The notes: generated by a model not told the origin, from the letters alone. DNA of 64,000 bases from an uncultured Collinsella sp. (GCA_900544115.1 UQTW01000004.1:18302-82301); one strand, 5' to 3'; shown: positions 11,601 to 57,160, counted from the first letter of the stretch. Program-made: numbers and translations.

Positions 11601-11865
11601 CAACGTGGCCAACGTGTTCAATGCCGAAACCTTTATCGAGGGTCTCATTGCCGGCGTCTTTGCCGTTACCGTCGTGGTGCTCGTAAGCTTTCCTGTTAAT
11701 GCTTGGGCGCTTGCTGCCAAGCAGGTCCCCAACCTGATGAGCCTGCCCGTGCAGGATGCGTTGATACTCATTGCGATATCGGTGCTGCTGACGGTCGTCG
11801 CCGGCCTACTGCCGGCCCGCAGCGCATCTAAGAAAGACCCCGTAGAAGCCCTACGCTCCGAATAA
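8602..11865 (+). CDS. Fused ABC transporter ATPase and FtsX-type permease with MacB-like architecture
   Basis: N-terminal Walker [10 protein letters not shown], signature LSGGQMQRV, and Walker B. There is one transmembrane segment, a large extracytoplasmic domain, and a C-terminal FtsX-like 3-TM bundle. Confidence 0.8.
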
Positions 11866-11894
11866 TGTGACAAAGGGACAGCCCCTTTGTCACA
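11866..11894. repeat. 29-bp palindrome copy 3 (tgtgacaaagggacagcccctttgtcaca)
   Basis: It directly abuts the TAA stop of the ABC gene (11863-11865). Confidence 0.9.
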
Positions 11895-11908
11895 TTTCTC
11901 TCCTGCGC

Positions 11909-13042: not shown

Positions 13043-13250
13043 GGCGGGTCCTTGGTGTCGTGGCGGTCGTTGTGGCGCGATGCCGTCATATGTGACTCAG
13101 TATAGAGAATCCCGCCATCGATGAGCGCATGGTCATACGGCAAAAGTGCCACGGCAGCCCTGGTTTAGAGCGGCTGCTCCTGTGCCCACGCGATGATGCC
13201 GCCCGATACGTATGTGTGCCAAAATAAACAGCCGAATGATGATTTGCAAA

Positions 13251-13279
13251 TGTGACAAAGGGACAGTCCCTTTGTCACA
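13251..13279. repeat. 29-bp palindrome copy 4 (exact)
   Basis: It sits in the 5' region 16 bp upstream of dus and is followed by the conserved gatgtgag motif. Confidence 0.9.
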
Positions 13280-13294
13280 TTGATGTGAGAATGG

Positions 13295-14254
13295 ATGTCG
13301 ATGTATTTATCGCTGGCCCCTATGGAGGGGATTACCGGGCATGTGTTCCGTCGCGTGCACGCGGAGTGTTTTGGCGCACTCGATTGTTATTACACGCCGT
13401 TTTTGCCGCCGCCACGGGTAGGCAACCGCTTTGGCGGCAAAGCGTTTAAAGAGGTCGATCCCGCCAATAACCAGGGGCTTAACGTAGTGCCTCAGCTGAT
13501 GTCCAAGAATGCGGATGAGTTTGTGTGGGCGGCGCAGGTGCTCGCCGACATGGGTTATCACGAGGTCAATCTCAACCTTGGCTGCCCCTCGGGCACGGTT
13601 GTCGCCAAGGGGAAGGGCTCGGGCTTTCTGCGCAATCTGGATGAGCTCGAGGTGTTCTTGAGCGACGTGTGCGAACGCTCGCCGTTGCCGGTGTCGGTCA
13701 AGACCAGGCTGGGATTGGAGAACGACGACGAATACGAGCGCGTGCTCGATCTGTATTGCCGCATGCCGCTGGCAGAGCTGATTGTGCACCCGCGCGTGCA
13801 AAAGGACCGCTATACGGGCTCGCCGCGCAAAGAGTTTTACGGTGAGACGCTGAAGCGGGCGCCGTTTCCGGTGGCCTATAACGGCGACATCTTTGATCTT
13901 GAGGACATGGATGCGCTGGTGGAGGCCTATCCCGGAACGCGTCACGTCATGTTGGGGCGCGGCTTGCTTGCGAACCCCGCGCTGGCTCGCATGGTTAAGG
14001 GCGGTCCTACTGCCACGGCAACTGAACTGCAGCGCTTCCACGACACGCTGTTTGCGGCCTATGCAGAAGAGATCGGCGGTAACGCGGTCTTTCGCATGAA
14101 GGAGTGGTGGTTCTACGCCAAGTGCGCCTTCGCCGATCCCGCGACCGTTCACAAACTCGTACGCAAGACCAAAAAGGTCGATGAATACCGTGCCGCTGTC
14201 GACCGTGTCTTTCGCGAGCAGCAGCTTGCGCCCATCGCCCGCTTTTGTGGCTAA
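13295..14254 (+). CDS. dus: tRNA-dihydrouridine synthase
   Basis: APMEGITGHVFRR..., LNLGCPSG, TIM-barrel Dus-family motifs. Confidence 0.8.
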   Translation: MSMYLSLAPMEGITGHVFRRVHAECFGALDCYYTPFLPPPRVGNRFGGKAFKEVDPANNQGLNVVPQLMSKNADEFVWAAQVLADMGYHEVNLNLGCPSGTVVAKGKGSGFLRNLDELEVFLSDVCERSPLPVSVKTRLGLENDDEYERVLDLYCRMPLAELIVHPRVQKDRYTGSPRKEFYGETLKRAPFPVAYNGDIFDLEDMDALVEAYPGTRHVMLGRGLLANPALARMVKGGPTATATELQRFHDTLFAAYAEEIGGNAVFRMKEWWFYAKCAFADPATVHKLVRKTKKVDEYRAAVDRVFREQQLAPIARFCG

Positions 14255-14385
14255 ATGATCCCTTGGGGACGGAGAAGAACGGATCGCCTGTGCCGGACCC
14301 ATGCAAAAAACTGTACGCCAGCATCCAAGGATGTCGAATAATATCGTTTTTGGATGCTGACGTACATGTTTGGTTCGGCAGGGGA

Positions 14386-14652
14386 CTAGGCAATCATTGC
14401 ATCGAGTGTAATGAGTTCCCTGAGTCGCTCCGTGCGCGTTTGCCCATGGCGCTTTGCCTTTGCGTCAAATGCTTCAAGAACCGATTCGCCCACACGTGCC
14501 GATAAAACAACGCTTGGTTCATCGGAAATCGGCGGCCTTCCCAACTTGACGGTGTGGCCCTTCGGCCACTCATCTTTTTCGTATGCCGCTGCGGCTTTTT
14601 CTAGCTCACCGGGAGCAAACCCCATCATCTTTTCGAGCTGTTTAGCGTCCAT
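14386..14652 (-). CDS. BrnA-like ribbon-helix-helix antitoxin
   Basis: MDAKQLEKMM...VVLSARVGESVLEAFDAKAKRHGQTRTERLRELI resembles the BrnA C-terminus. It starts 8 bp downstream of the toxin gene, and the track ORF is extended 5' beyond this start. Confidence 0.55.
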   Translation of the reverse strand: MDAKQLEKMMGFAPGELEKAAAAYEKDEWPKGHTVKLGRPPISDEPSVVLSARVGESVLEAFDAKAKRHGQTRTERLRELITLDAMIA

Positions 14653-14660
14653 AGCGCCTC

Positions 14661-14927
14661 CTATCGATCGATTCCGATTTCCCTGAGCACCTTGCGCGTA
14701 GGAGGGACAAGGGCGTGGTAAATGATGTAACCATCTCGGTCGGGGCAACATCGAGCAATGAGCTCCATGAGGCGGTTTTTTCCATCAAGTCCAACGAGAA
14801 CGTAATCGATGCCTCCATTTTCAAGATCACGCCTAAACCATGCGAAAGCGGAGTTCCAAGCGCAGGTAATATCCGTCTCTGTCAGCCCATGTTTGAGGGC
14901 ATGGGGGTGGATTGCGATGAGCTCCAT
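14661..14927 (-). CDS. BrnT-like (DUF497) ribonuclease toxin
   Basis: ...HALKHGLTETDI...LVGLDGKNRLMELIARCCPDRDGYIIYHALVPPTRK is BrnT/RelE-like. Toxin-first gene order matches brnTA. Confidence 0.55.
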   Translation of the reverse strand: MELIAIHPHALKHGLTETDITCAWNSAFAWFRRDLENGGIDYVLVGLDGKNRLMELIARCCPDRDGYIIYHALVPPTRKVLREIGIDR

Positions 14928-14984
14928 AGGGACCTCTCTTTATGTATACAGTTTTGTAGACAAAAATACAAGCAGTTAATATGG

Positions 14985-16271
14985 TTAAGCAGCCTGTTTT
15001 GGTTGGACTGTTGGTTGCATAGTTGGCACGAGAGGCTCTACCGCTTCTTCATTTCTTAGTTCGGTATGCGAGCGGCCGTTGAACTCCCAGAGGGGAGTGT
15101 TCTCATAGATTATCGAGATGAGTTTGGAGACCTTGTTTATCTTCGCTTGTTCATAAAAATCGGGCCGTACGACGATCAATAGAAATTCGGCATCTTCGTT
15201 AATTTGTTGCACTGTCGGCATGCCGTTGAGACCAATAGAGCGCAAGAGCTTTGCCATAATGAAATCGAATTCGTCCTCTCTTGCGTGAAGGCTCGCGGCA
15301 CTCAGCTTGGAATCCTTCAAGATATCCAGTTTGAGATTGTTAAGAAACCGTGTGTAGGTGGCATATCCGCAGACAACGTCCTCATAATCGAGTTTTTTGA
15401 TTGGATGCTGTTTATGAGCAGCGAATATGGCCGCCCTCCTGCTCTGAACACGTCGCTCGCGTAACGAACGCATTTCCTCGGTGTACTCGCTATGGCGTTT
15501 ATATTTTCGATAAGAATATCCGTAGTCGTCGTAGTAATAAGGGTTGTTTTCGACTGTGTCATCAAGTTCCGGCGTTATGAGGTACAGCTCTCCGTCTCTG
15601 GATAACATACAGGGGTTGTCGATGCGCCCCGACTCGTCTCTGATTTTCCAAATGGTTTCATTTACTTCGAATATCGAGACTGGTTTGGGAGCGCAAGAAT
15701 TGTAAAGCTCAACAAACTTCTCAAGCGAGATGATTCCGCAAGCATCTGTATAAGCGCGTGCAAAGCGCCAAACTTCCTGGTTCGCTATGAGCTCGCGGAA
15801 TTCCCTGTTGCTTGGAGCATCTTGTGGGCTTTGGTATCTGGCGTGAAGCGCGACGCGTGATGAGGACCATCTGTTGTCGGCCGCGACGTTCATGAGCTCC
15901 AGACGCAGGTACTCGTTTGTAATGCGAGCGAGTGACTCATAGTGAGTTAGGCCAAGCTCTGATCTAGGTGGCACGTCTTTGGGAACGGCGCGAGCGAACT
16001 TAATGCAGCGTGTGAGATAGGATTGTCCTAAGCGGGGACCATAATGCTTGTGTAGATGGCCGCCGACAGGGGAGAGCAATCCTTTGAGGTTGGTAACGGG
16101 GTATCCGGCGGTCTCTTGTTCGAGGCGGCGCCCGATGAGCAATGCCCCCTCAAGCGAAGTTTCATGATCGATACCCTTTTGATTAAGGCTCTTGGCTTCA
16201 ACGATTCCGCTGATATCTGAGCAGGCGCTCGAAACGATGTCGGACGTAAAGGTTGGAATCTTTTTTGCCAT
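14985..16271 (-). CDS. Hypothetical protein, 428 aa, with no recognisable domain
   Basis: Long intact ORF in a locally AT-richer segment with no overlapping alternative frame. Confidence 0.5.
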   Translation of the reverse strand: MAKKIPTFTSDIVSSACSDISGIVEAKSLNQKGIDHETSLEGALLIGRRLEQETAGYPVTNLKGLLSPVGGHLHKHYGPRLGQSYLTRCIKFARAVPKDVPPRSELGLTHYESLARITNEYLRLELMNVAADNRWSSSRVALHARYQSPQDAPSNREFRELIANQEVWRFARAYTDACGIISLEKFVELYNSCAPKPVSIFEVNETIWKIRDESGRIDNPCMLSRDGELYLITPELDDTVENNPYYYDDYGYSYRKYKRHSEYTEEMRSLRERRVQSRRAAIFAAHKQHPIKKLDYEDVVCGYATYTRFLNNLKLDILKDSKLSAASLHAREDEFDFIMAKLLRSIGLNGMPTVQQINEDAEFLLIVVRPDFYEQAKINKVSKLISIIYENTPLWEFNGRSHTELRNEEAVEPLVPTMQPTVQPKQAA

Positions 16272-16556
16272 AACGATGCACTCCTGTGTGACTCACGGAT
16301 AACGGAAACGTTTGGTTGTGAGTGCCGTTCTTTGATGGCGACGGCGAACAGGAGCGCAGCCTGTCTGAGATGGGCGAGTGCGGTAACCACCGATCTTACT
16401 TACCGAGCTCGCTCCAGCGTGTCATTGGGGACCTCCGCAGGAGCTCTCGACTCGTCTCATGCCTTGAGGCGAGTATAGCATAAAAGCAAACGTATGTTCT
16501 ATAAATTTGAGAAGCTGAATTCCTACCTACTCATTTAAGTACGTCCCCAATGAGTG

Positions 16557-16802
16557 CTAGAGGAGGTTTTTCTGTGTCCAGGTGATGATGTCGCTCGACT
16601 CGTAGAGCGGTTTGCCGTCAATGAACAGGCAGGGAACCTGGCGTTTTCCGCCGACGGCGATGAGCGTCTGCTCGGCATCGGGGTCAGTCGAGATATTGCG
16701 TTCGGGAATGGTCACGCCGTTATCGGCCAAAAAGCGCTTGACCTTTATGCAATACGGGCAGCCAGTCATAACGTAGAGCGCGAGTTCATGATCAGTAGCC
16801 AT
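16557..16802 (-). CDS. Glutaredoxin-like protein (NrdH/Grx family)
   Basis: MATDHELALYVMTGCPYCIKVKRFL... has the CPYC active site in a thioredoxin fold. The track ORF is a long 5' artefactual extension. Confidence 0.7.
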   Translation of the reverse strand: MATDHELALYVMTGCPYCIKVKRFLADNGVTIPERNISTDPDAEQTLIAVGGKRQVPCLFIDGKPLYESSDIITWTQKNLL

Positions 16803-23394: not shown

Positions 23395-23454
23395 CCCGGC
23401 AGTTGGGGACAGTCCCTTTCTGCCGGCAGAAAGGGAACGTCCCCAACTGCCGGG
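23395..23454. repeat. 60-bp near-perfect palindrome in a divergent promoter region
   Basis: cccggcagttggggacagtccctttctgccgg | ccggcagaaagggaacgtccccaactgccggg. It shares the core gggacagtcccttt with the 29-bp family. Confidence 0.85.
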
Positions 23455-33757: not shown

Positions 33758-34657
33758 ATGGCATCGCGGTATCAGATTGTATGTATGGTGGTCGATTGCG
33801 GCAGCCTGAAACGTGCGGCCGACGAGCTGGGCTATAAGCAAAGCGCGGTGAGCCAGGCCGTCAAGGCACTCGAGCGCGAGCTGGGCACCACGATTATCGA
33901 GCGCGGCAAGCAGGGCGTCTCACTGACGCGCGACGGCAAACAGTATCTGCCGTATCTACGCCAGATCGTAACGGCCGAGGCCGAGCTTGAGGGTAAGCGC
34001 CAGGAGTTGTTGGGGCTTTCGTCGACCGACATTCGCATTGCGACGTTTACCAACGTGAGCCGTACCGTGCTGCCGCGCGTGATCCGCGACTTTGGGGCTC
34101 TGCATCCGGGCGTGCACTTTACCCTCAAGCAGGGCGATTACACGCGCAACGCCCAGTGGGTGCACGATGGCGTGGTCGATTTTTGCTTTACGGCGCGCGG
34201 ATTTACCACGGGGCTCGAGAAGCGCGTGGTCTATCACGATGAGTTGGTGGCGCTGCTGCCGGCCGCCCATCCGCTGGCGGCAAAGGAAAAGGTGACGCTC
34301 GCCGACCTGGCGCCCGAACCGTTTGTGCTGCTGGATGAGGGCGAGCAGAGCCTGGTGCTCGATGCATTCACGGCGCACGGGCTGTCGCCGCATGTGACGA
34401 GTGAGGTTACCGACGACTACACCATTATGGCGATGGTGGAGGAGGGCCTGGGCGTGAGCATGCTCTACCGTCGTACGGTCGAGGGCATGCAGGCCGATAT
34501 CCGCGTGCGTCCTATCGTGCACGCTCCCTCGCGTGACGTTGTGGCAGCGTGGCGCAGCTGGGATACCATGCCGATCGCCACAAGGCGCTTTATCGACTAC
34601 ATGAGCTCGCATATCGTGAGCCAGCTGCCGATGCGCCACCTTGTTGGATGTGTCTAG
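33758..34657 (+). CDS. LysR-family transcriptional regulator
   Basis: N-terminal HTH ...SLKRAADELGYKQSAVSQAVKALEREL... and a LysR substrate-binding domain. Confidence 0.8.
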   Translation: MASRYQIVCMVVDCGSLKRAADELGYKQSAVSQAVKALERELGTTIIERGKQGVSLTRDGKQYLPYLRQIVTAEAELEGKRQELLGLSSTDIRIATFTNVSRTVLPRVIRDFGALHPGVHFTLKQGDYTRNAQWVHDGVVDFCFTARGFTTGLEKRVVYHDELVALLPAAHPLAAKEKVTLADLAPEPFVLLDEGEQSLVLDAFTAHGLSPHVTSEVTDDYTIMAMVEEGLGVSMLYRRTVEGMQADIRVRPIVHAPSRDVVAAWRSWDTMPIATRRFIDYMSSHIVSQLPMRHLVGCV

Positions 34658-36036
34658 CGCGCCCCGGTCTTGGCTTGCGCCAGACGGTAGGTGCGTGCCG
34701 GGTGGCAGAGCAATACCGCCACGACCATAAAGAACGCTGTGGTGCCCAGGCTGATGGGGTAGACCATCATGATGTTCGCAAAGGTGCGGAAGTGGGGGAA
34801 CACGCAGAATACCCAGTAGAAGCGAATACCGCAGACGCAGATCATGGTGATGAGGGCGGGCATGAGCGAGATGCCAAAGCCGCGTAGGTAACCGGACATG
34901 TTCTCGTAGAACATGCTAAAGGCGTACGCCGGGAAGATCGAACACACGCGGATATAGCCGATCGAGACGATGTTGGGGTCGCTGTTGAACAGCGCCAGGA
35001 TCTCACGCCCCAGACCGACGATGATGACGATGGTGGTGAGTGCAACGATGCCGCCTTCGACCAGGCAGACCTTGAGCGTCTTGGTGCAGCGGTCGATCTG
35101 GCGGGCACCGTGGTTTTGCCCCACAAAGGTGGTGCAGGCCTGGCTAAAGCTGTTGAGCAGGTTGTAGCACACGTACTCCAGGCTCATGGCGGCGCTGGAT
35201 GCTGCCATGACCTCGGTGCCCAGGCTGTTGATGGCGGACTGGATGATGATGTTGGCGACGGCAAAGACAGCGCTTTGGATGCCGGCGGGCAGTCCGATTT
35301 TGACGATGCGCTTGAGGGCGACGGGGTCTAAGCCTAAGTCGCGTGGGGTGACGCGGACGACGGAGTCGGTCTTGAGCAGGCGGATAAAGAGTGTAGCGGC
35401 GCTGACGGTGTAGGCGATGGCGGTGGCGATGGCGACGCCCGCGACGCCCCAGTGGAGTACGGGGACAAAGATGAGGTCCAGGCCAATGTTGAGGACGGTG
35501 GACACGGCAAGCGCCTGCAGCGGCATGCGGGTGATGCCGACGGAGCGGAAGATCGCGGCCTCAAAGTTGTAGAGCAAGATTGAGGGCAGGCTGAGCAAAA
35601 AGACGCGCAGGTAGAGCGAGGCGAGCGGCATGGTTTCGGCGGGAACGTTGAGCGCGGCGAGCATGGGCTCGGCAAAGATCTCGCCCAGAGCGATGACGAC
35701 AAAGCCCACGAGCGCCATTAAAATCGAGGTATGGACGGCGCGTTTGACCATGTTCTGATCGTTGCGGCCGATAGCGTTGGCGATGACCACGTTGGAGCCA
35801 AGCGACATGCCAATAAACAGGTTGAGCATAAGACTGGTAAGCGGAACATTGGAGCCGACCGCCGCCATGGCGAGGGTTCCCTGGTCGCCCGAGAAATTAC
35901 CGATGATGACCGTGGCGATGAGATTCGATAGCTGCTCCAAGATGCTCGTGGCGGCCACGGGGAAGGCGAACAGGGGAATATTTCGCCACAGCGAGCCGGT
36001 GATCATGTCAATGTGCTTAGATGCGGTATCAGCCAT
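34654..36036 (-). CDS. MATE-family efflux transporter
   Basis: 12 transmembrane segments with a MATE N-terminus. It overlaps the LysR stop by 4 bp in convergent orientation. Confidence 0.8.
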   Translation of the reverse strand: MADTASKHIDMITGSLWRNIPLFAFPVAATSILEQLSNLIATVIIGNFSGDQGTLAMAAVGSNVPLTSLMLNLFIGMSLGSNVVIANAIGRNDQNMVKRAVHTSILMALVGFVVIALGEIFAEPMLAALNVPAETMPLASLYLRVFLLSLPSILLYNFEAAIFRSVGITRMPLQALAVSTVLNIGLDLIFVPVLHWGVAGVAIATAIAYTVSAATLFIRLLKTDSVVRVTPRDLGLDPVALKRIVKIGLPAGIQSAVFAVANIIIQSAINSLGTEVMAASSAAMSLEYVCYNLLNSFSQACTTFVGQNHGARQIDRCTKTLKVCLVEGGIVALTTIVIIVGLGREILALFNSDPNIVSIGYIRVCSIFPAYAFSMFYENMSGYLRGFGISLMPALITMICVCGIRFYWVFCVFPHFRTFANIMMVYPISLGTTAFFMVVAVLLCHPARTYRLAQAKTGAR

Positions 36037-36100
36037 ACGCTCTCAATCTCTAATATGCTCTTTCGTGCTTATTTGCGCAGATGATGATACTCCTAATCGA

Positions 36101-36158
36101 CTAGTCATTGGGGACGTTCTTAAACGACTAATCATTTAAGAACGTCCCCAATGACTAG
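36101..36158. repeat. 58-bp perfect palindrome with 24-bp arms, in the MATE/rlmA divergent promoter region
   Basis: CTAGTCATTGGGGACGTTCTTAAA-cgactaatca-TTTAAGAACGTCCCCAATGACTAG, read directly from the sequence. Confidence 0.9.
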
Positions 36159-36214
36159 GTGTGGAAGGCGTGCGACAATGGTGGGCGTTGTGTAGTCCGC
36201 GCTAAGGAGTTGCC

Positions 36215-37030
36215 ATGTTGTTGTGTCCCGTTTGCCATGAGCCGTTGGCGGACAATGAGCGCGGTGCTGCATGCGCGGGCGGACACCGGTTTGACCGTGC
36301 GCGCGAGGGCTATCTGTACTTACTGCGCTCGTCCAAGAGCGGCGACTCCATGGGTGATCCCAAGTCGCAGGCGCGCAGCCGTCGTGACTTTCTGAACCGT
36401 GGATACTACGCGCCGTTGCGCGATGCGATGGTCGAGCTGGTGCGCAAGCAGGTGTCTGGGTGTGCTGCGTCTACGAATGGCCCCATGACGCTGCTCGACA
36501 TTTGCTGCGGGGAAGGCTACTACACCAGCGCCATGGGCGCGGTGCCGGGCGTGGATGCTTACGGTTTCGACCTGGGCAAAGAGATGGTGCGCCTGGCCGC
36601 CAAGCGCGGCGATGCGACCTACTTTGTGGCCAACATGAAGGATATCCCCGTGGCCGATGGCACCTTCGATATGGTGACCGAACTCTTTGCTCCCTTTAAC
36701 GAGCGCGAATTTGCCCGCGTGCTGGCGCCAGAGGGCTCGTTCTATACCGTGGTGCCGGGTGCCCGTCACCTCTTTGGGCTCAAGGAAGTGCTCTACGATA
36801 CGCCATATCTCAACGATGAGAAGCTGCCGAAGACCACCGAGCTCGAGTTAGTCGGAACGCAGCGGGTATCTGCGAATATTACGCTCCAGACCCAGGCCGA
36901 CATCGAGGCGGTGTTCCAGATGACGCCGTACTACTACCGCACGCGCCCTGCCGACAAAGAGCGCCTGGCAAACTTGGACACGCTCCAGACCGATATCGAC
37001 TTCATCATCGCCGAGTACCGCCACAGCTAA
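36215..37030 (+). CDS. rlmA: 23S rRNA (guanine745-N1)-methyltransferase
   Basis: N-terminal zinc knuckle MLLCPVCHEPL...CAGGHRFD, and DICCGEGYYT is the SAM motif. It aligns closely with E. coli RlmA. Confidence 0.85.
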   Translation: MLLCPVCHEPLADNERGAACAGGHRFDRAREGYLYLLRSSKSGDSMGDPKSQARSRRDFLNRGYYAPLRDAMVELVRKQVSGCAASTNGPMTLLDICCGEGYYTSAMGAVPGVDAYGFDLGKEMVRLAAKRGDATYFVANMKDIPVADGTFDMVTELFAPFNEREFARVLAPEGSFYTVVPGARHLFGLKEVLYDTPYLNDEKLPKTTELELVGTQRVSANITLQTQADIEAVFQMTPYYYRTRPADKERLANLDTLQTDIDFIIAEYRHS

Positions 37031-39917: not shown

Positions 39918-41921
39918 ATGTCGAAGCAAGCGGTCGTTGGAATCTTGGCGCATGTCGATGCCGGCAAGACCACGCTGGCCGAGGCCATGTTGTTCAACGC
40001 GGGTCGCATTCGCAAGCGCGGCCGCGTGGACGATGGCGATTCGCATCTGGACACTAACACGATCGAGCGCGAGCGCGGCATTACGATCTTCTCGTCGCAG
40101 GCCGTGCTCGACCATGGCGATACCCACGTCATGCTCGTTGATGCGCCGGGGCATGTCGATTTTTCTGCCGAGGCGGAGCGCACATTGCGCGCACTCGACT
40201 ACGCGATTTTGGTTGTGGGCGCCAACGACGGCGTACAAGGGCACACCGAAACCCTGTGGCGCCTGCTTGCGCGCTATGACATTCCGACGTTCATCTATAT
40301 CAACAAAATCGATTTGGAGAATCCCGGCCGCGATGTTTTGCTGGCACAACTTGGGCAACGTCTTTCCGAAGGTTGCCTGGATGCCAACGAACTGTTGGCG
40401 GGCGGCGCCGTTCAGGAGGACGCTGCTGCGTTGGACGAGGCGGCGCTCGAGGAGTTTCTTGAGGCGGGCGAACTTTCTGTTGCAACGCTGTCACGCATGG
40501 TTGCCGAGCGCAAGCTCTTTCCCTGCTTTGCCGGCTCGGCGCTCAAGGACCAAGGCGTGGACGAGCTGCTGGACGGCATATGCGCGCTGATGCGTGAACG
40601 GGCATGGCTTCCGGAGTTTGCCGCGCGCGTCTATCGTGTCAGCCGCGGGGATCGTGGCGAGCGCTTGGCTTGGGTTAAAGTGACCGGCGGCACGCTGCGT
40701 GCCAAGCAGATGATTAACGGACGTTCCGGCGCCGAGGCATGGGAGCAAAAGATCGACCAGGTGCGCATCTATAACGGCGAGAAATACGAGCTTGCCCAGG
40801 AAGTTGCCGCTGGCGGCATCTGCACCGTGACGGGTCTTGCGCACGTTCGCCCGGGTGATGCCCTGGGCGCGGAGCCCGCGGGCGATACGCCCGTCATTGC
40901 GCCGGTCCTCACCTATACGGTGCTTCCGGGCGAACACGATGTCCACGCGGTGTTCAAAGCGCTGACTGAGTTGGCGGACGAAGATCCCATGCTCGGCGTA
41001 AGCTGGAATACGCATCTTGAACAAATACATCTGCAGCTCATGGGAGCGGTGCAACTCGAGGTCGTGCAGCGGGTGTTGGCCGATCGTTTTGGCCTTGCGG
41101 TCGAGTTTGAGCCCGGCGGCATCCTCTATAAGGAGACCATTTCGCAGCCGGTCGAGGGCGTGGGTCACTTTGAGCCACTGCGCCACTATGCCGAGGTGCA
41201 TCTGCGCCTGGAGCCGTTGCCGGCGGGCTCGGGCGTACAGTTTGGCACCGTGACCTCGACCGACGAGCTCGATCTTAACTGGCAGCGTCTGGCGCTCACC
41301 AACGCCATGGAGCGCGATCATCTGGGCGTGCTGACCGGCTCGCCCATCACCGATGTGTGCATTACGCTCACAGGTGGCCGCGCGCATGCCAAACACACCG
41401 AGGGCGGCGATTTTCGCCAGGCCACGTATCGCGCGATTCGCCAGGGGCTCATGCGGGCACGTGAGGCCGGCGCGGCGGTGCTGTTGGAGCCGTGGTACCA
41501 CTTTGAGCTCGAGGTGCCGGGGGAGTGCGTGGGCCGGGCGCTCTCGGATGCCACGCGCATGGGTGCCGAGTACGAGCCGCCGACGATGGCGGGCGACCGA
41601 GCGAAGCTTGTGGGTCGCGTGCCGGCATCCGAGGTGCAGGATTACGCGCTGGAGGTGGCTGCCTACACGAGTGGTCGCGGGCATCTGTACCTGGAGTTTG
41701 CCGGCTATGCGCCTTGTCATGATGCCGAGCGCGTCATCGAGGCGGTGGCCTATGAGCCCGAGGCCGATCTGCCCAACACGCCCGACTCGGTCTTTTGCTC
41801 TCACGGCGCCGGTTACACGGTCAAATGGTACGACGTACCCGCCGCGGCACACGTAAAGATCGATCCCGCCGCCTTCCGTCCCTGGCGAGCAGCAGACGCT
41901 GAGTTTTTCGGCCACATGTGA
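39918..41921 (+). CDS. Ribosomal-protection-type translational GTPase (TetM/TetO/TetW/OtrA family)
   Basis: AVVGILAHVDAGKTTLAEAML, DAPGHVDF, NKIDL. The domain IV/V region ...LPAGSGVQFGTVTS... aligns with Tet(W)/Tet(M) and is divergent from canonical EF-G. RBS aagaggagag precedes the ATG at 39918. Confidence 0.65.
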   Translation: MSKQAVVGILAHVDAGKTTLAEAMLFNAGRIRKRGRVDDGDSHLDTNTIERERGITIFSSQAVLDHGDTHVMLVDAPGHVDFSAEAERTLRALDYAILVVGANDGVQGHTETLWRLLARYDIPTFIYINKIDLENPGRDVLLAQLGQRLSEGCLDANELLAGGAVQEDAAALDEAALEEFLEAGELSVATLSRMVAERKLFPCFAGSALKDQGVDELLDGICALMRERAWLPEFAARVYRVSRGDRGERLAWVKVTGGTLRAKQMINGRSGAEAWEQKIDQVRIYNGEKYELAQEVAAGGICTVTGLAHVRPGDALGAEPAGDTPVIAPVLTYTVLPGEHDVHAVFKALTELADEDPMLGVSWNTHLEQIHLQLMGAVQLEVVQRVLADRFGLAVEFEPGGILYKETISQPVEGVGHFEPLRHYAEVHLRLEPLPAGSGVQFGTVTSTDELDLNWQRLALTNAMERDHLGVLTGSPITDVCITLTGGRAHAKHTEGGDFRQATYRAIRQGLMRAREAGAAVLLEPWYHFELEVPGECVGRALSDATRMGAEYEPPTMAGDRAKLVGRVPASEVQDYALEVAAYTSGRGHLYLEFAGYAPCHDAERVIEAVAYEPEADLPNTPDSVFCSHGAGYTVKWYDVPAAAHVKIDPAAFRPWRAADAEFFGHM

Positions 41922-41945
41922 CAAGGGGACAGCCCCTTTGTCACC
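41917..41945. repeat. 29-bp palindrome copy 5 (tgtgacaaggggacagcccctttgtcacc)
   Basis: The TGA stop of the preceding gene (41919-41921) is the TGA inside the palindrome. Confidence 0.85.
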
Positions 41946-42014
41946 CGCTGTTGGTATAACTCGGTGTAAGTTGGTATAACTATAGGCAGGGTTTGCCAAT
42001 CCGAGGAGGCCGAC

Positions 42015-43133: not shown

Positions 43134-43161
43134 TGTGAAGAGGGACGGTCCCTTTGTCACA
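43134..43161. repeat. Palindrome copy 6, degenerate (tgtgaagagggacggtccctttgtcaca)
   Basis: It abuts the TAA stop at 43131-43133 and is followed by gatagatgtgagg, just upstream of the GNAT start. Confidence 0.8.
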
Positions 43162-43183
43162 TCGATAGATGTGAGGTCAAAAC

Positions 43184-43738: not shown

Positions 43739-46230
43739 TGACGGTGTCGCAACAACCAAGTGCTATCGAGGTGCGTGGCGCGCGCGTCCATAACCTCAAG
43801 GACATCGATATCGATATTCCGCTGGGAAAACTCGTAGGTATTGCCGGCGTGTCGGGTTCGGGCAAGAGTTCGCTGGCGTTGGGAGTTCTTTATGCCGAGG
43901 GCTCGCGCCGCTATCTGGAGGCGCTCAGCACCTATACCCGCCGTCGTCTGACGCAGGCCGAGCACGCCCAGGTGGACGAGGTGCTGCACGTGCCGGCGGC
44001 GCTCGCATTGCATCAGCGTCCGAGCGTGCCGGGCGTGCGTTCCACCTTTGGCACCATGACCGAGCTCAACAATAGCCTGCGCTTGCTTTTTAGTCGCTGT
44101 GCCCATCACGTGTGCCCGCATTGCGGGGCGCGCGTGGAGCCGAGCCTTAACGTGGCTGCGGGCCTGTCGCTCACGTGTCCGACATGCGGCCGCGAGTTCT
44201 ACGCGCCGAGTGCCGAGGATTTGGCTTTCAATAGCGGCGGCGCGTGTCCTACCTGCGGCGGCACCGGTGTCATGCGCGAAGTGGACGAGGCGAGTCTGGT
44301 GCCCGACGAGTCAAAGACTATCAACGAGGGCGCGGTGCTTCCTTGGGGCACGCTCATGTGGGATTTGATGAAGCAGGTGGCAGGCGAGATGGGCGTGCGC
44401 ACCGATGTGCCGTTTAGCCAGCTCACGCCTCAAGAGCGCGATATCGTGTTCCACGGCCCGGCGGTTAAGAAGCACATTCTCTACGTTCCCAAAAACGGCG
44501 AGGGCGCCACGCCGCTCGACTTTACCTATTACAACGCCGTCTATACCGTTGAGAATGCGCTCGCCAAGGTTAAGGACGATAAGGGGCTTAAGCGTGTGGC
44601 TCGCTTTTTGCGCGAGGGACCATGCCGTGACTGCGCCGGCACGCGTCTCTCCGAGGCTGCGCGCCAGCCCCAGGTGCGCGGTATCAATCTGGCTCAGGCC
44701 GCGGCCATGACGCTTGGTGATGCGATCGAGTGGGTGCGCGGGGTGCCCGCATCCTTGCCGGCCGAGATGCGGCCCATGGCGACGGATATCTGCGATTCGT
44801 TTTTGAGCACGGCTCGTCGTCTGGTCGACCTGGGTCTCGATTACCTTTCGCTCGATCGCGCCGGTGCCACGCTCTCCACGGGTGAGCGCCAGCGCGTGCA
44901 ACTCGCCCGCGTGGTGCGCAACCGATCGACAGGCGTGCTCTATGTGCTGGACGAGCCCTCAATTGGCTTGCATCCTGCCAATGTCGACGGCTTGGTGGGC
45001 GTAATGCGCGACCTGGTGGATGACGGCAATACCGTGGTTGTTGTCGACCACGATACACGTGTGCTGGTGGAGGCTGATTATCTGGTCGAGATGGGCCCCG
45101 TTGCCGGAGCAGGCGGCGGCAGTGTAATCGCCGCGGGCACGGTGGACGAGGTCGAGCAATCGCAGGACAGCCGTATCGCGCCGTTTTTGCGCGCCGAGCC
45201 CAAGCGCTTGCGTCCGCAGGTGACTGACGACGAAATGTTCGACCAGGGCCATATCCGCATGGCGACCGATACCATCCATACCGTCAAGCCGCTCGAAGTC
45301 GATATTCCGCGCGGTCGCTTGGTCGCGGTTACGGGTGTTTCGGGTTCGGGCAAGACGACGTTGGTGCTCGAGACGCTCATCCCGGCGCTTAAGGCGCAGG
45401 CAGCTGACGAGCGCTTGCCGGGGCACGTGTGTTGGGTCGATGCCGAGGGCATTGGCCGCGCAAACCTGATTGACGCCACGCCCATCGGTGCCAACGTGCG
45501 CTCGACGGTAGCGACTTATGCCGACATCCATGATGAGCTGCGCCGCGCCTTCGCCCGCACGCCCGAGGCAAAGGCAGCCGGCTACAAGGCGGGTGCCTTT
45601 AGCTACAATACCGGCGCCTTGCGCTGCCCTACGTGTGATGGCACGGGCTCGATATCGCTCGACGTGCAGTTTTTGCCCGATGTCGAAATCGTCTGCCCGG
45701 CATGTCGCGGCTCACGTTATGCAGACGCGGCTTCGCATATCCATCGCGAGGGCAAGGACGGGAGTCTGCTTACGTTGCCGCAGCTCATGGACATGAGTGT
45801 GGACGAGGCCATCGACGCCACGGTGGGGCTCAAGAAAGTTCAGACGCGCTTGCAGACCTTGCACGACCTTGGCTTGGGCTATCTTACGCTCGGTGAGCCC
45901 ACACCGGCGCTTTCGGGCGGCGAGGCGCAGCGCCTTAAGCTCGCGAGCGAGATGGGCCGCGTGCAGGATGATGCCGTATTCGTATTTGACGAGCCCACGA
46001 TCGGCCTGCATCCGCTCGATGTTCAGGTGCTGTTGAACGTGTTTGACGGCCTCGTTGCCAAGGGCGCCACGGTTATCGTGATCGAGCACGACCTCGACCT
46101 TATCTGTAACGCCGATTACGTGATCGACATGGGCCCGGGCGGTGGTGATGCGGGCGGGCAAATCGTCTGCGCCGGCACGCCAGGCGACATCGCAGCCTGC
46201 TCCGCAAGCATCACCGGCCGCTACCTATAG
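43735..46230 (+). CDS. Short UvrA-like ABC ATPase (UvrA2 paralog), 831 aa
   Basis: Two ABC modules (GVSGSGKSS, GVSGSGKTT) with zinc-finger Cys clusters. It is about 110 aa shorter than canonical UvrA, consistent with loss of the UvrB-binding and insertion domains. Confidence 0.75.
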   Translation: MMTVSQQPSAIEVRGARVHNLKDIDIDIPLGKLVGIAGVSGSGKSSLALGVLYAEGSRRYLEALSTYTRRRLTQAEHAQVDEVLHVPAALALHQRPSVPGVRSTFGTMTELNNSLRLLFSRCAHHVCPHCGARVEPSLNVAAGLSLTCPTCGREFYAPSAEDLAFNSGGACPTCGGTGVMREVDEASLVPDESKTINEGAVLPWGTLMWDLMKQVAGEMGVRTDVPFSQLTPQERDIVFHGPAVKKHILYVPKNGEGATPLDFTYYNAVYTVENALAKVKDDKGLKRVARFLREGPCRDCAGTRLSEAARQPQVRGINLAQAAAMTLGDAIEWVRGVPASLPAEMRPMATDICDSFLSTARRLVDLGLDYLSLDRAGATLSTGERQRVQLARVVRNRSTGVLYVLDEPSIGLHPANVDGLVGVMRDLVDDGNTVVVVDHDTRVLVEADYLVEMGPVAGAGGGSVIAAGTVDEVEQSQDSRIAPFLRAEPKRLRPQVTDDEMFDQGHIRMATDTIHTVKPLEVDIPRGRLVAVTGVSGSGKTTLVLETLIPALKAQAADERLPGHVCWVDAEGIGRANLIDATPIGANVRSTVATYADIHDELRRAFARTPEAKAAGYKAGAFSYNTGALRCPTCDGTGSISLDVQFLPDVEIVCPACRGSRYADAASHIHREGKDGSLLTLPQLMDMSVDEAIDATVGLKKVQTRLQTLHDLGLGYLTLGEPTPALSGGEAQRLKLASEMGRVQDDAVFVFDEPTIGLHPLDVQVLLNVFDGLVAKGATVIVIEHDLDLICNADYVIDMGPGGGDAGGQIVCAGTPGDIAACSASITGRYL

Positions 46231-46234
46231 GCGA

Positions 46235-46263
46235 TGTGACAAAGGGACTGCCCCTTTGTCACA
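46235..46263. repeat. 29-bp palindrome copy 7 (tgtgacaaagggactgcccctttgtcaca)
   Basis: It lies 4 bp after the UvrA-like stop. Confidence 0.9.
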
Positions 46264-46270
46264 TTGACTT

Positions 46271-47371: not shown

Positions 47372-47491
47372 AAAGCTCTCCTTTCACAGCGCCGTTTAAC
47401 TTCATTTTACTTTAGTTAATTCTGATTAAAAGTGAGGGCTTTTTATCTAGAGCATCAATTAGGCGTGTGCGCCATCGGCGCGGCGCTTGAA

Positions 47492-47520
47492 TGTGACAAA
47501 GGGACAGTTCCTTTGTCACA
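47492..47520. repeat. 29-bp palindrome copy 8 (tgtgacaaagggacagttcctttgtcaca)
   Basis: The trmL stop codon (reverse complement of 47516-47518) is the TGA inside the palindrome's right arm. Confidence 0.9.
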
Positions 47521-48115
47521 TTCCCGGAAAGCCTGTTTGGCGCAGGGCTTCGTAGAGGACGATGGCGGCGCTGTTGGAGAGGTTGAGGGCGCTGATGCGG
47601 TAGTCGTCCGGGTTGACGAAGTTGCCGCAGATGTCCTTTTGAAGGATAGCCTCGTGGCTGTCCTCGGTATGTCCGAGCGATTCCTCGTGGGCTTCCCAAG
47701 CCTCGGCGTTATCGAGCGAGTCGCAATCGCGCAGCATAGGGATGCGCTCGCAGCGCTCGGGCGCCGCGGCGAGCAGTGGCTCGGGAATGCCCGAGCTCTC
47801 GCTGCCAAAGACCAAGTAGTCGCCGTCGTGGTAGGTACTCTGCGCATAGGTGCGGCGTGCCTTTTTGGTCAGCAGATGTAGGCGCTCGTCGGCAGGGGAG
47901 AGACCGTTGCGTGCAAGGAAATCCTCCCAGCCGGCATAGGTCGTCACGTCCAAGTTTTGCCAGTAGCCCAGGCCGGCGCGACGTACCGTTTTGTCGTCGA
48001 GCGAGAAGCCCAGCGGCTCCACCAGATGCAGGCGGGCGCCGGTGACCACGCAGGTACGGCCGATATTGCCCGTATTGGCCGGAATCTCGGGCGCATACAG
48101 CACAATGTTGAACAT
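47516..48115 (-). CDS. trmL: tRNA (cytidine/uridine34-2'-O)-methyltransferase TrmL (SpoU family) with an internal acidic insertion
   Basis: MFNIVLYAPEIPANTGNIGRTCVVTGARLHLVEPLGF and the C-terminal ...LNLSNSAAIVLYEALRQ align with E. coli TrmL. The start coordinate is accurate to about 1 nt, and the track ORF is extended 5'. Confidence 0.8.
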   Translation of the reverse strand: MFNIVLYAPEIPANTGNIGRTCVVTGARLHLVEPLGFSLDDKTVRRAGLGYWQNLDVTTYAGWEDFLARNGLSPADERLHLLTKKARRTYAQSTYHDGDYLVFGSESSGIPEPLLAAAPERCERIPMLRDCDSLDNAEAWEAHEESLGHTEDSHEAILQKDICGNFVNPDDYRISALNLSNSAAIVLYEALRQTGFPGM

Positions 48116-56986: not shown

Positions 56987-57008
56987 GGCAAGCTGCCGTG
57001 GACTCGGC

Positions 57009-57116
57009 GGAAAGCGCGTCCCAGAATGAGCGTTCAGACTGGGATGCGGTTTCCCGTTAAGCCTCTATATGGAAAGCGCATCCCAGAATGGACGTCCAAA
57101 CTGGGATGCGCTTTCC
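57009..57116. repeat. Two tandem homologous 46-nt hairpins between convergent genes
   Basis: ggaaagcgcgtcccag-(14)-ctgggatgcggtttcc at 57009-57054 and ggaaagcgcatcccag-(14)-ctgggatgcgctttcc at 57071-57116. There is no T-run, so they are REP-like rather than a classic terminator. Confidence 0.7.
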
Positions 57117-57160
57117 GCTGTCGAAGGTATGAGGCTGCGGAGCAGCTGCTCGGCATAGGC

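Follow-up and report, generated by a model that had tools for sequence, protein, structure and literature searches.

We find that the 58-bp palindrome lying between the divergent genes for a MATE exporter and the rRNA methyltransferase RlmA, in a DNA stretch of 64,000 nucleotides from an uncultured Collinsella sp. of the aerofaciens group (the whole of which is here called the window), is probably made up of two units, joined head to head, of a short interspersed palindromic repeat akin to the REP, BIME and REPIN elements. An alignment of its matches revealed that the repeated entity is, rather than the 58-mer, a unit of ~31 nt, CTAG-TCATTGGGGACGTTCTTAAATGA-CTAG, whose ends are complementary to each other. 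The family appears to be specific to the genus Collinsella and seems to be undescribed; no description of Collinsella repeats was found in the literature searched.

The sequence at 36101-36158 reads CTAGTCATTGGGGACGTTCTTAAA-CGACTAATCA-TTTAAGAACGTCCCCAATGACTAG, with ten central bases between reverse-complement arms, and matches in full the perfect palindrome with 24-bp arms reported in the preliminary description; a repeat finder takes the arms to 27 nt at 96% complementarity with a single mismatch. It resolves into two units, of which the right one is inverted and offset from the left by 27 nt, the standard phase for the repeat family (Table 1). In the left unit the stem TAGTCATT/..GACTA encloses the conserved loop GGGGACGTTCTTA, and the 4-nt overlap between the two units is CTAA in the window and CTAG in most strains. 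Folding of the 58-bp palindrome gave -44.3 kcal/mol as RNA (z -10.1 relative to shuffles) and -26.7 kcal/mol as single-stranded DNA (z -14.5), and the latter value suggests that the formation of a cruciform or hairpin, one of the possibilities raised at the outset, is feasible. The spacer between the divergent MATE and rlmA genes, inside which the palindrome lies, is 178 bp long in the window. On the far side of the exporter, a LysR-family gene (33758-34657, + strand) converges with the MatE gene (34654-36036, - strand), and the stop codons of these two overlap in one CTAG (34654-34657).

Each unit consists of a 7-9-bp stem around a conserved loop of 13-17 nt, TTGGGGACGTTCYTT, which is common to three sub-families, A1, A2 and B, whose stems are different in sequence and yet internally compensating. 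A1, the major form, has the flanking columns TAG...CTA; A2, the type found at 16.5 kb, has CAC...GTG flanks that go with an A at loop position 13; and B, uncovered by searching with the core GGGGACGTTC alone, has the stems CCGGCAC...GTGCCGG or CCGGCAG...CTGCCGG. The outer four nucleotides of the stem form a self-complementary tetranucleotide, namely CTAG in A units and CCGG in B units. While the stems vary by sub-family, positions 5-10 of the core hardly vary at all (198-199 of 200). When 132 distinct units are aligned without gaps, 75.6% of the cells in the 9-bp helix are paired, as against 62.5% in column shuffles and 22-50% in controls with slid partners, and in eight of the nine stem pairs both partners have undergone changes; the score for covariation, 0.441 versus 0.225, is reached by none of 500 shuffles, the signal coming from three or four sub-family lineages. 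The wobble departures from pairing are split between G.T (55) and A.C (56) with neither strand favoured, which argues for symmetry at the level of DNA rather than for a strand-specific RNA. Single units are weak single-stranded DNA hairpins (-0.9 to -3.7 kcal/mol), and a direct reading of the sequence finds stop codons in five of the six frames of the unit. The 31-nt unit is thus a short imperfect palindrome with stem-loop capacity, in the range of 20-40 nt that is characteristic of REPs.

Because the shared outer tetranucleotide is self-complementary, neighbouring units are spaced at exactly 27 nt, and a unit followed by its inverse yields a long perfect hairpin such as that at 36101-36158. 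Unit pairs at exactly this distance in the Collinsella loci among the matches listed are inverted as '+-' in 29 cases, direct in 13 and '-+' in none; hence the head-to-head '+-' doublet, the type seen in the window, is the commonest arrangement. This predominance is REP-like, yet the direct pairs are not rare. The 58-bp palindrome itself is one of 50 distinct doublet sequences of its type in the Collinsella DNA that was examined. Units are also found singly, in direct tandem and in mosaics, always in the 27-nt phase, and there are in addition inverted unit pairs 127-154 nt apart. The arms were previously suggested to be the terminal inverted repeats of one MITE-like element, a reading that does not hold, since each arm corresponds to one entire unit, and such units are also encountered on their own, as direct tandems and within phased mosaics.

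To survey the remaining copies in the window, a covariance model (R1) built from the repeat units was run over its entire length, recovering five strong units: the two at 36101-36158, one at 16527-16557 and two at 23396-23453. The last two constitute a B-type doublet, whose units share CCGG where A units share CTAG; both halves match R1 (35.1 and 25.7 bits) in the 27-nt phase, bearing out the earlier remark that the 60-bp palindrome at 23395 has a core in common with that at 36101. The unit at 16527-16557, which is of type A2, directly adjoins the CTAG (16557-16560) containing the stop codon of the glutaredoxin gene. The region 16418-16560 had been described as a second copy in two separated arms. 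The right arm is real: TCATTGGGGACGTACTTAAATGA at 16531-16553 on the - strand is one mismatch away from the palindrome's arm and belongs to this A2 unit (R1 36.3 bits, E 1.6e-8). The purported left-arm fragment at 16422, by contrast, is an 11-nt match (TCATTGGGGAC, R1 E 0.39) with no demonstrable arm, and the sequence around it, at 16418-16454, could be what is left of a truncated unit or could match by chance. The region 16418-16560 holds a single intact A2 unit beside a 2.2-kb low-GC island, with the marginal fragment inside that island, rather than a copy divided by an insertion. Two Collinsella contigs differ at the glutaredoxin site: L035 has two direct A2 units followed by the downstream sequence of the window, and L031 has neither the A2 unit nor the island. 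L031 also carries an intact A doublet (374-431) at the position matching the decayed relic at 14256.

Table 1. Repeat units of the window and the two genes flanking the palindrome. R1 is the covariance model of the repeat unit
Feature	Coordinates	Strand	Evidence and remarks
A1 doublet (58-bp palindrome)	36101..36158	.	24 perfect arm pairs; 27/29 positions complementary
Left A1 unit, CTAGTCATTGGGGACGTTCTTAAACGACTAA	36101..36131	+	R1 42.1 bits, E 2.4e-10
Right A1 unit, inverted	36128..36158	-	R1 40.9 bits, E 5.8e-10
Single A2 unit, CACTCATTGGGGACGTACTTAAATGAGTAG	16527..16557	-	R1 36.3 bits, E 1.6e-8
Marginal fragment, TCATTGGGGAC followed by unrelated sequence	16418..16454	+	R1 12.3 bits, E 0.39; one-mismatch 13-mer match
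Decayed doublet relic, cccTTGGGGACGgagaAGAACGg	14256..14286	+	R1 16.5 bits, E 0.021
B-type doublet, left unit, CCGGCAGTTGGGGACAGTCCCTTTCTGCCGG	23396..23426	+	Stem CCGGCAG/CTGCCGG; R1 25.7 bits, E 2.9e-5
B-type doublet, right unit	23423..23453	-	R1 35.1 bits, E 3.6e-8; 27 nt from left unit
MatE-family exporter	34654..36036	-	ORF; Pfam PF01554 MatE on the identical gene in contigs L001-L007; start codon 64 nt from doublet
RlmA-type rRNA methyltransferase	36215..37030	+	ORF; Pfam PF21302 Zn_ribbon_RlmA and methyltransferase domains; start codon 56 nt from doublet

The island just mentioned (~14378-16577) stands out in base composition, its 14001-16000 bin having 51% G+C as against ~59% for the whole window. 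It contains the 428-aa ORF as well as an overlapping pair of small genes (14386-14927) that we take to be a putative BrnT/BrnA-type toxin-antitoxin pair, and it is missing from the orthologous region of L031 and present in L035 and L115. Its position directly against the A2 unit suggests that the repeat may serve as a target for insertions.

Given the recurrence of the unit within the window, we scanned a species-representative genome collection with the 19 specified bases common to three arms of the window (TCATTGGGGACGTNCTTAAA) and found this arm pattern in at least 120 DNA stretches, nearly all labelled Collinsella or Coriobacteriaceae. The loci among the matches listed, comprising 864 kb, contain 201 units within five mismatches of the consensus. 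Across the Collinsella genomes at least 44 distinct genomic sites carry the unit, and copy content differs between strains; the palindrome is therefore clearly neither single-copy nor without homologues, which the preliminary description had named as the findings that would weaken the idea of a mobile element. A 900-kb record of C. aerofaciens shows 18 places for the repeat in BLAST, and in its first 328 kb, an unselected stretch, R1 finds 12 units in five clusters, all between annotated genes. The repeat is accordingly moderately frequent, at roughly one cluster per 50 kb, and extrapolation yields a copy number of roughly 40-100 units per genome. Its copies resemble those of REPs in being numerous, dispersed and overwhelmingly extragenic: in the loci among the matches listed, 129 of the 138 clusters lie outside called ORFs. 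The spacers holding clusters are convergent in 26 cases, tandem in 44 and divergent in 21, which is about proportional and betrays no preference. In 24 of the 201 units the flanking TAG serves to terminate an ORF of 150 codons or more, and both orientations relative to the arriving gene occur (42 vs 25).

Several of the records examined appear to bear labels at odds with their content. Three contigs labelled Sodaliphilus (L022), Acutalibacteraceae (L036) and Methanobrevibacter smithii (L078) carry the Collinsella repeat, and the flanks in the M. smithii bin are those of the Collinsella locus L024; these are probably Collinsella contigs mis-binned into other metagenome-assembled genomes. Likewise, the 900-kb C. 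aerofaciens record, NZ_OY725717.1 (L209-L215), listed in PLSDB as 'plasmid 6' of C. aerofaciens TSDC17.2-1.1 (899,693 bp), carries recA, rho and genes for ribosomal proteins, tRNA ligases and a BREX-1 system, and has the appearance of part of a chromosome wrongly labelled a plasmid. A phage or plasmid origin of the repeat was considered and rejected: searches of phage collections returned one viral contig and no phage, and the sole 'plasmid' match is this chromosome-like record.

The MATE-rlmA spacer offered an opportunity to follow the repeat at a single site. It is identical in seven contigs with identical RlmA, and differs from this in 80 metagenomic loci with RlmA 96-99% identical. We combined these 80 loci with three from the genome scan that cover the spacer and with sequence of the window itself into a set of 83 loci with RlmA at least 96% identical, among which there are 65 different spacer sequences between flanks that are always conserved. 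The commonest allele holds the doublet (178 bp), which in a 196-bp version carries an additional partial duplication of 18 bp; shorter alleles have one unit in either orientation (150-151 bp, or 163 bp in L071). Other alleles have a B module, accompanied by one A unit (203 and 216 bp), by the doublet (235 and 243 bp) or, at 191 bp, by no more than the final 8 nt of an A unit, and a larger mosaic measures 271 bp. No empty site was encountered among the 83 loci. On a neighbour-joining tree of the flanking coding sequence these architectures are interleaved, implying repeated change or movement by recombination, and the number and type of modules thus turn over quickly between close strains. The single-unit alleles appear to be derivable from the doublet by deletion between direct repeats of 6-9 bp that stem from the unit stems themselves (CTAGTCATT...CTAGTCATT, GACTAG...GACTAG). 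Among the 40 strains with the 178-bp allele, only six have mismatch-free 24-bp arms, and the substitutions in the arms are all uncompensated, which indicates that the long hairpin is not upheld by compensation. In these strains the third codon positions of rlmA have a nucleotide diversity of 0.160 and the centre of the palindrome one of 0.121; the values for the flanks are 0.055 and 0.032, and the arms have the lowest, 0.023. This low diversity of the arms points to constraint or homogenisation rather than neutral junk.

One way to account for such constraint is that the repeats are a binding-site array for a host DNA-binding protein, such as a global regulator, a nucleoid-associated protein or a topoisomerase. 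The protein would then recognise the dyad-like core GGGGAC|GTTCC, of which the doublet would present two inverted copies, 27 bp apart, within a divergent promoter; BIMEs in E. coli have been reported to bind host proteins of this kind. Consistent with this, positions 5-10 of the core are almost unchanged (198-199 of 200) despite the varying stems, the arms are far less diverse than the third codon positions of rlmA (0.023 vs 0.160), the lack of strand bias would allow double-stranded recognition and about 23% of the clusters lie in divergent spacers. However, at one and the same promoter the number, type and orientation of modules vary freely among near-identical strains, and some alleles lack an intact A unit altogether, an example being the 191-bp allele, where only a B module and the terminal 8 nt of a unit are left. 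Moreover, many copies sit at the 3' ends of genes, right on the stop codons, the neighbouring genes have no common functional theme, and relics such as that at 14256 decay. We therefore regard a binding-site array as unlikely.

Alternatively, the palindrome might be a minimal MITE derived from a DDE insertion sequence, for instance of the IS630/Tc1 type inserting at CTAG and duplicating TA, with the 24-bp arms as transposase-binding terminal repeats joined almost end to end and the 150-180-bp '+...-' composites as longer relatives. IS630 targets CTAG, the tetranucleotide that bounds the A units and is rare in this genome (34 observed vs ~124 expected), and inverted unit pairs 127-154 nt apart do exist. 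Against this, the bounding tetranucleotide varies by sub-family (CAC..GTG or CCGG) and pairs within the stem, which argues against an element made of terminal repeats and a target-site duplication; the flanking CTAG is no such duplication but the outer end of the unit's own stem. Nor would single arms, direct tandems and strict 27-nt tiling be expected of such an element. Among the loci examined there is no element with TAGTCATTGGGGACGTTCTTAAA-type ends bearing a transposase: the DNA between distant inverted units in 120 repeat-carrying loci among the matches listed holds housekeeping genes only, and in the C. aerofaciens record the ends of the transposase genes, IS30 and IS1249 among them, are unrelated to the unit. 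A search with pairs of flanks for empty sites likewise recovered only microhomology deletions in mosaics and no clean insertion footprint; orthologous loci differ by apparent microhomology deletions and small duplications, and no filled and empty pair with a duplicated target, nor any empty site with a single CTAG or TA, turned up among the loci compared. Taken together, these observations make a MITE quite improbable. As to CTAG itself, its under-representation in the window is ~3.6-fold (34 vs 124 +/- 11 in dinucleotide shuffles), and three of the 34 occurrences lie in repeat units. The idea that GGGAC is an avoided restriction site enriched in the repeats was set aside, its depletion being mild (89 vs 118 +/- 11).

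A role at the level of RNA, whether as a 3'-UTR stabiliser, a terminator hairpin, or a small RNA or leader in the neighbouring transcripts, might be suggested by the very stable RNA fold of the doublet (-44 kcal/mol) and by the many units immediately 3' of stop codons, and REPs in E. coli do stabilise upstream mRNA. However, MATE and rlmA are both transcribed away from the element, which places the palindrome at 36101 outside any 3' UTR. There is no T-tract, and consensus scans found no terminator-like or consensus promoter sites in 35950-36300 or 16250-16650. Searches of the whole window against Rfam gave no match at the gathering thresholds; a permissive search of 35950-36300 recovered only generic hairpin matches at 10-19 bits, well under thresholds of 49-90 and hence taken to be chance hairpins, and no match to the Collinsella-1 RNA motif of Rfam. 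The arriving gene can meet a unit in either orientation (42 vs 25), and G.T and A.C departures are equal across the strands. Accordingly, an RNA-level element is very unlikely, and the proposal of a structured bidirectional-promoter RNA finds no support in the Rfam results or in the wobbles, which are equally frequent on both strands.

Finally, a dedicated operator for a local regulator of the exporter and/or rlmA, such as the product of the adjacent LysR-type gene, is hardly credible despite the central place of the palindrome in a 178-bp divergent spacer and the proximity of that gene (33758-34657), given that the unit recurs at no fewer than 44 unrelated sites, that the module content of the spacer is not conserved among strains (RlmA at least 96% identical) that keep both genes and the LysR gene, and that the latter is convergent with the exporter rather than divergent from it. 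A sequence present at dozens of unrelated loci, in a promoter that tolerates any module content, is no locus-specific operator; the palindrome most likely sits in the promoter region of the divergent MATE and rlmA genes as a passenger, not as a control site made for them, and annotating it as an operator for either the efflux pump or rlmA is not warranted. One end of the unit may nevertheless have acquired a local use. Its last 8 nt (ATGACTAG) are kept in nearly all spacer alleles, 17 nt upstream of TGC-GACAAT, and the -35-like ATGACT together with TGn-GACAAT upstream of rlmA agrees with the consensus at 8 of 12 positions. This retention suggests that the end of the unit may have been co-opted as a weak -35 box (ATGACT) for rlmA.

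Returning to the reading as a REP/BIME/REPIN-like repeat, a comparison with known systems reveals both shared and distinctive features. The REPs and BIMEs of Enterobacteriaceae and Pseudomonas, which include the GTAG and CGTC super-families, are likewise imperfect palindromes of 20-40 nt that are extragenic, present in tens to hundreds of copies, often situated at gene ends, predominantly dimerised head-to-head and found in strain-variable mosaics with other motifs. Di Nocera et al. 2013 (PMC3733652) reported that head-to-head REP dimers predominate while direct (head-to-tail) ones are negligible, and described a CGTC super-family devoid of a dedicated transposase; for the Collinsella repeat, too, no RAYT/IS200-type transposase was found in the ~2 Mb of DNA searched. 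The same work also lists families of stem-loop repeats that have no terminal tags, in Mycobacterium tuberculosis and Deinococcus radiodurans, and its text makes no mention of Actinobacteria. The Collinsella repeat differs from REPs in having paired ends (CTAG, CCGG or CAC..GTG) in place of the unpaired GTAG or CGTC tag, in tiling in a strict 27-nt phase via the common self-complementary tetranucleotide, and in its host, an actinomycete of the class Coriobacteriia. Furthermore, conservation in the Collinsella unit resides in the long loop (13-17 nt) and variation in the stems, the opposite of classical REPs, with their conserved stem and tag and variable loop.

As in the REPINs of Pseudomonas fluorescens, the inverted doublet forming one long hairpin is the commonest form, and the single units seen at the site of the doublet in some strains could be decay products, although any comparison of singlets and doublets in this regard carries an ascertainment bias, the census loci having been retrieved by exact match to one unit. 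REPINs have a spacer between their units, whereas those of the Collinsella doublet overlap, and they are mobilised by RAYT, while the ~2 Mb of Collinsella DNA searched yielded neither a RAYT nor a Y1 transposase. Specifically, phmmer searches (including --max) with an E. coli RAYT sequence, checked against PDB 4ER8, and with an IS608-like TnpA returned nothing better than E 0.5 for a RAYT/IS200 transposase in 10,161 six-frame ORFs from ~1.2 Mb, and the 900-kb C. aerofaciens record was not among the matches of a tblastn search with RAYT at E up to 10. MITEs, such as the Correia elements of Neisseria and those derived from IS630, are similarly small and non-coding, with inverted-repeat ends, a location in intergenic and promoter regions and presence/absence variation, but the Collinsella repeat has neither a target-site duplication nor a related autonomous insertion sequence in the DNA examined, and each of its 'arms' is free-standing. 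The BOX elements of pneumococci are modular, with few module types in variable number per locus and no known mobilising enzyme. The Collinsella repeat shares the modularity and the variable number, though the sequences are unrelated and its modules all have one core motif and one 27-nt phase.

These features suggest a scheme in which a non-coding hairpin element would have given rise to the copies by spreading through duplication, acting as single-stranded or cruciform DNA that a putative protein might recognise via the conserved loop. Units would then be gained and lost locally when slippage or microhomology deletion takes place between the short repeats within them. As a more specific form of this, we consider it conceivable, though of low probability, that Collinsella harbours an active hairpin-repeat system that is neither RAYT-dependent nor IS-derived, wherein a putative protein, such as an HUH-type nickase or another ssDNA-specific factor, recognises the 13-17-nt loop on interchangeable stems and copies or maintains the 27-nt-phased units. 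Such a system would explain both the spread to dozens of loci and the strong conservation of the arms, and would represent a new repeat-protein partnership; we know of none described in the phylum to which Collinsella belongs.

As a REP/BIME-like family, the repeat would extend these elements to Coriobacteriia with an inverted logic of conserved loop and interchangeable stems, and would make the spread and host use of tag-less palindromic repeats testable in a new lineage. Since Collinsella is a common and very diverse genus of the human gut, the strain-variable module count offers a marker for strain typing. It is likely, too, that the repeat causes breaks in assemblies, mis-binning and false calls of horizontal-transfer breakpoints.

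The window contains further palindromes. A second, more abundant family, AATGTGACAAAGGGAC-N-GTCCCTTTGTCACATT, has 15 half-site matches as against 0.17 expected, at 2431-2463, 11864-11896, 13249-13281, 41915-41947, 43136-43163, 46229-46269 and 47489-47523. It contains GGGAC/GTCCC, and both copies that were inspected lie just past a gene end, one of them with a T-rich tail; the family looks like a common terminator-type hairpin. The segment 28206-28513 comprises about four imperfect hairpin repeats of ~57 nt each, TCTCGATCTGTAACA...TGTTACAGATTGAGA, with a CTAG in each. Lastly, 57007-57118 holds nested palindromes, GGAAAGCGCATCCCAG...CTGGGATGCGCTTTCC, with 48-nt arms of 81% complementarity enclosing an inner 23-nt palindrome.
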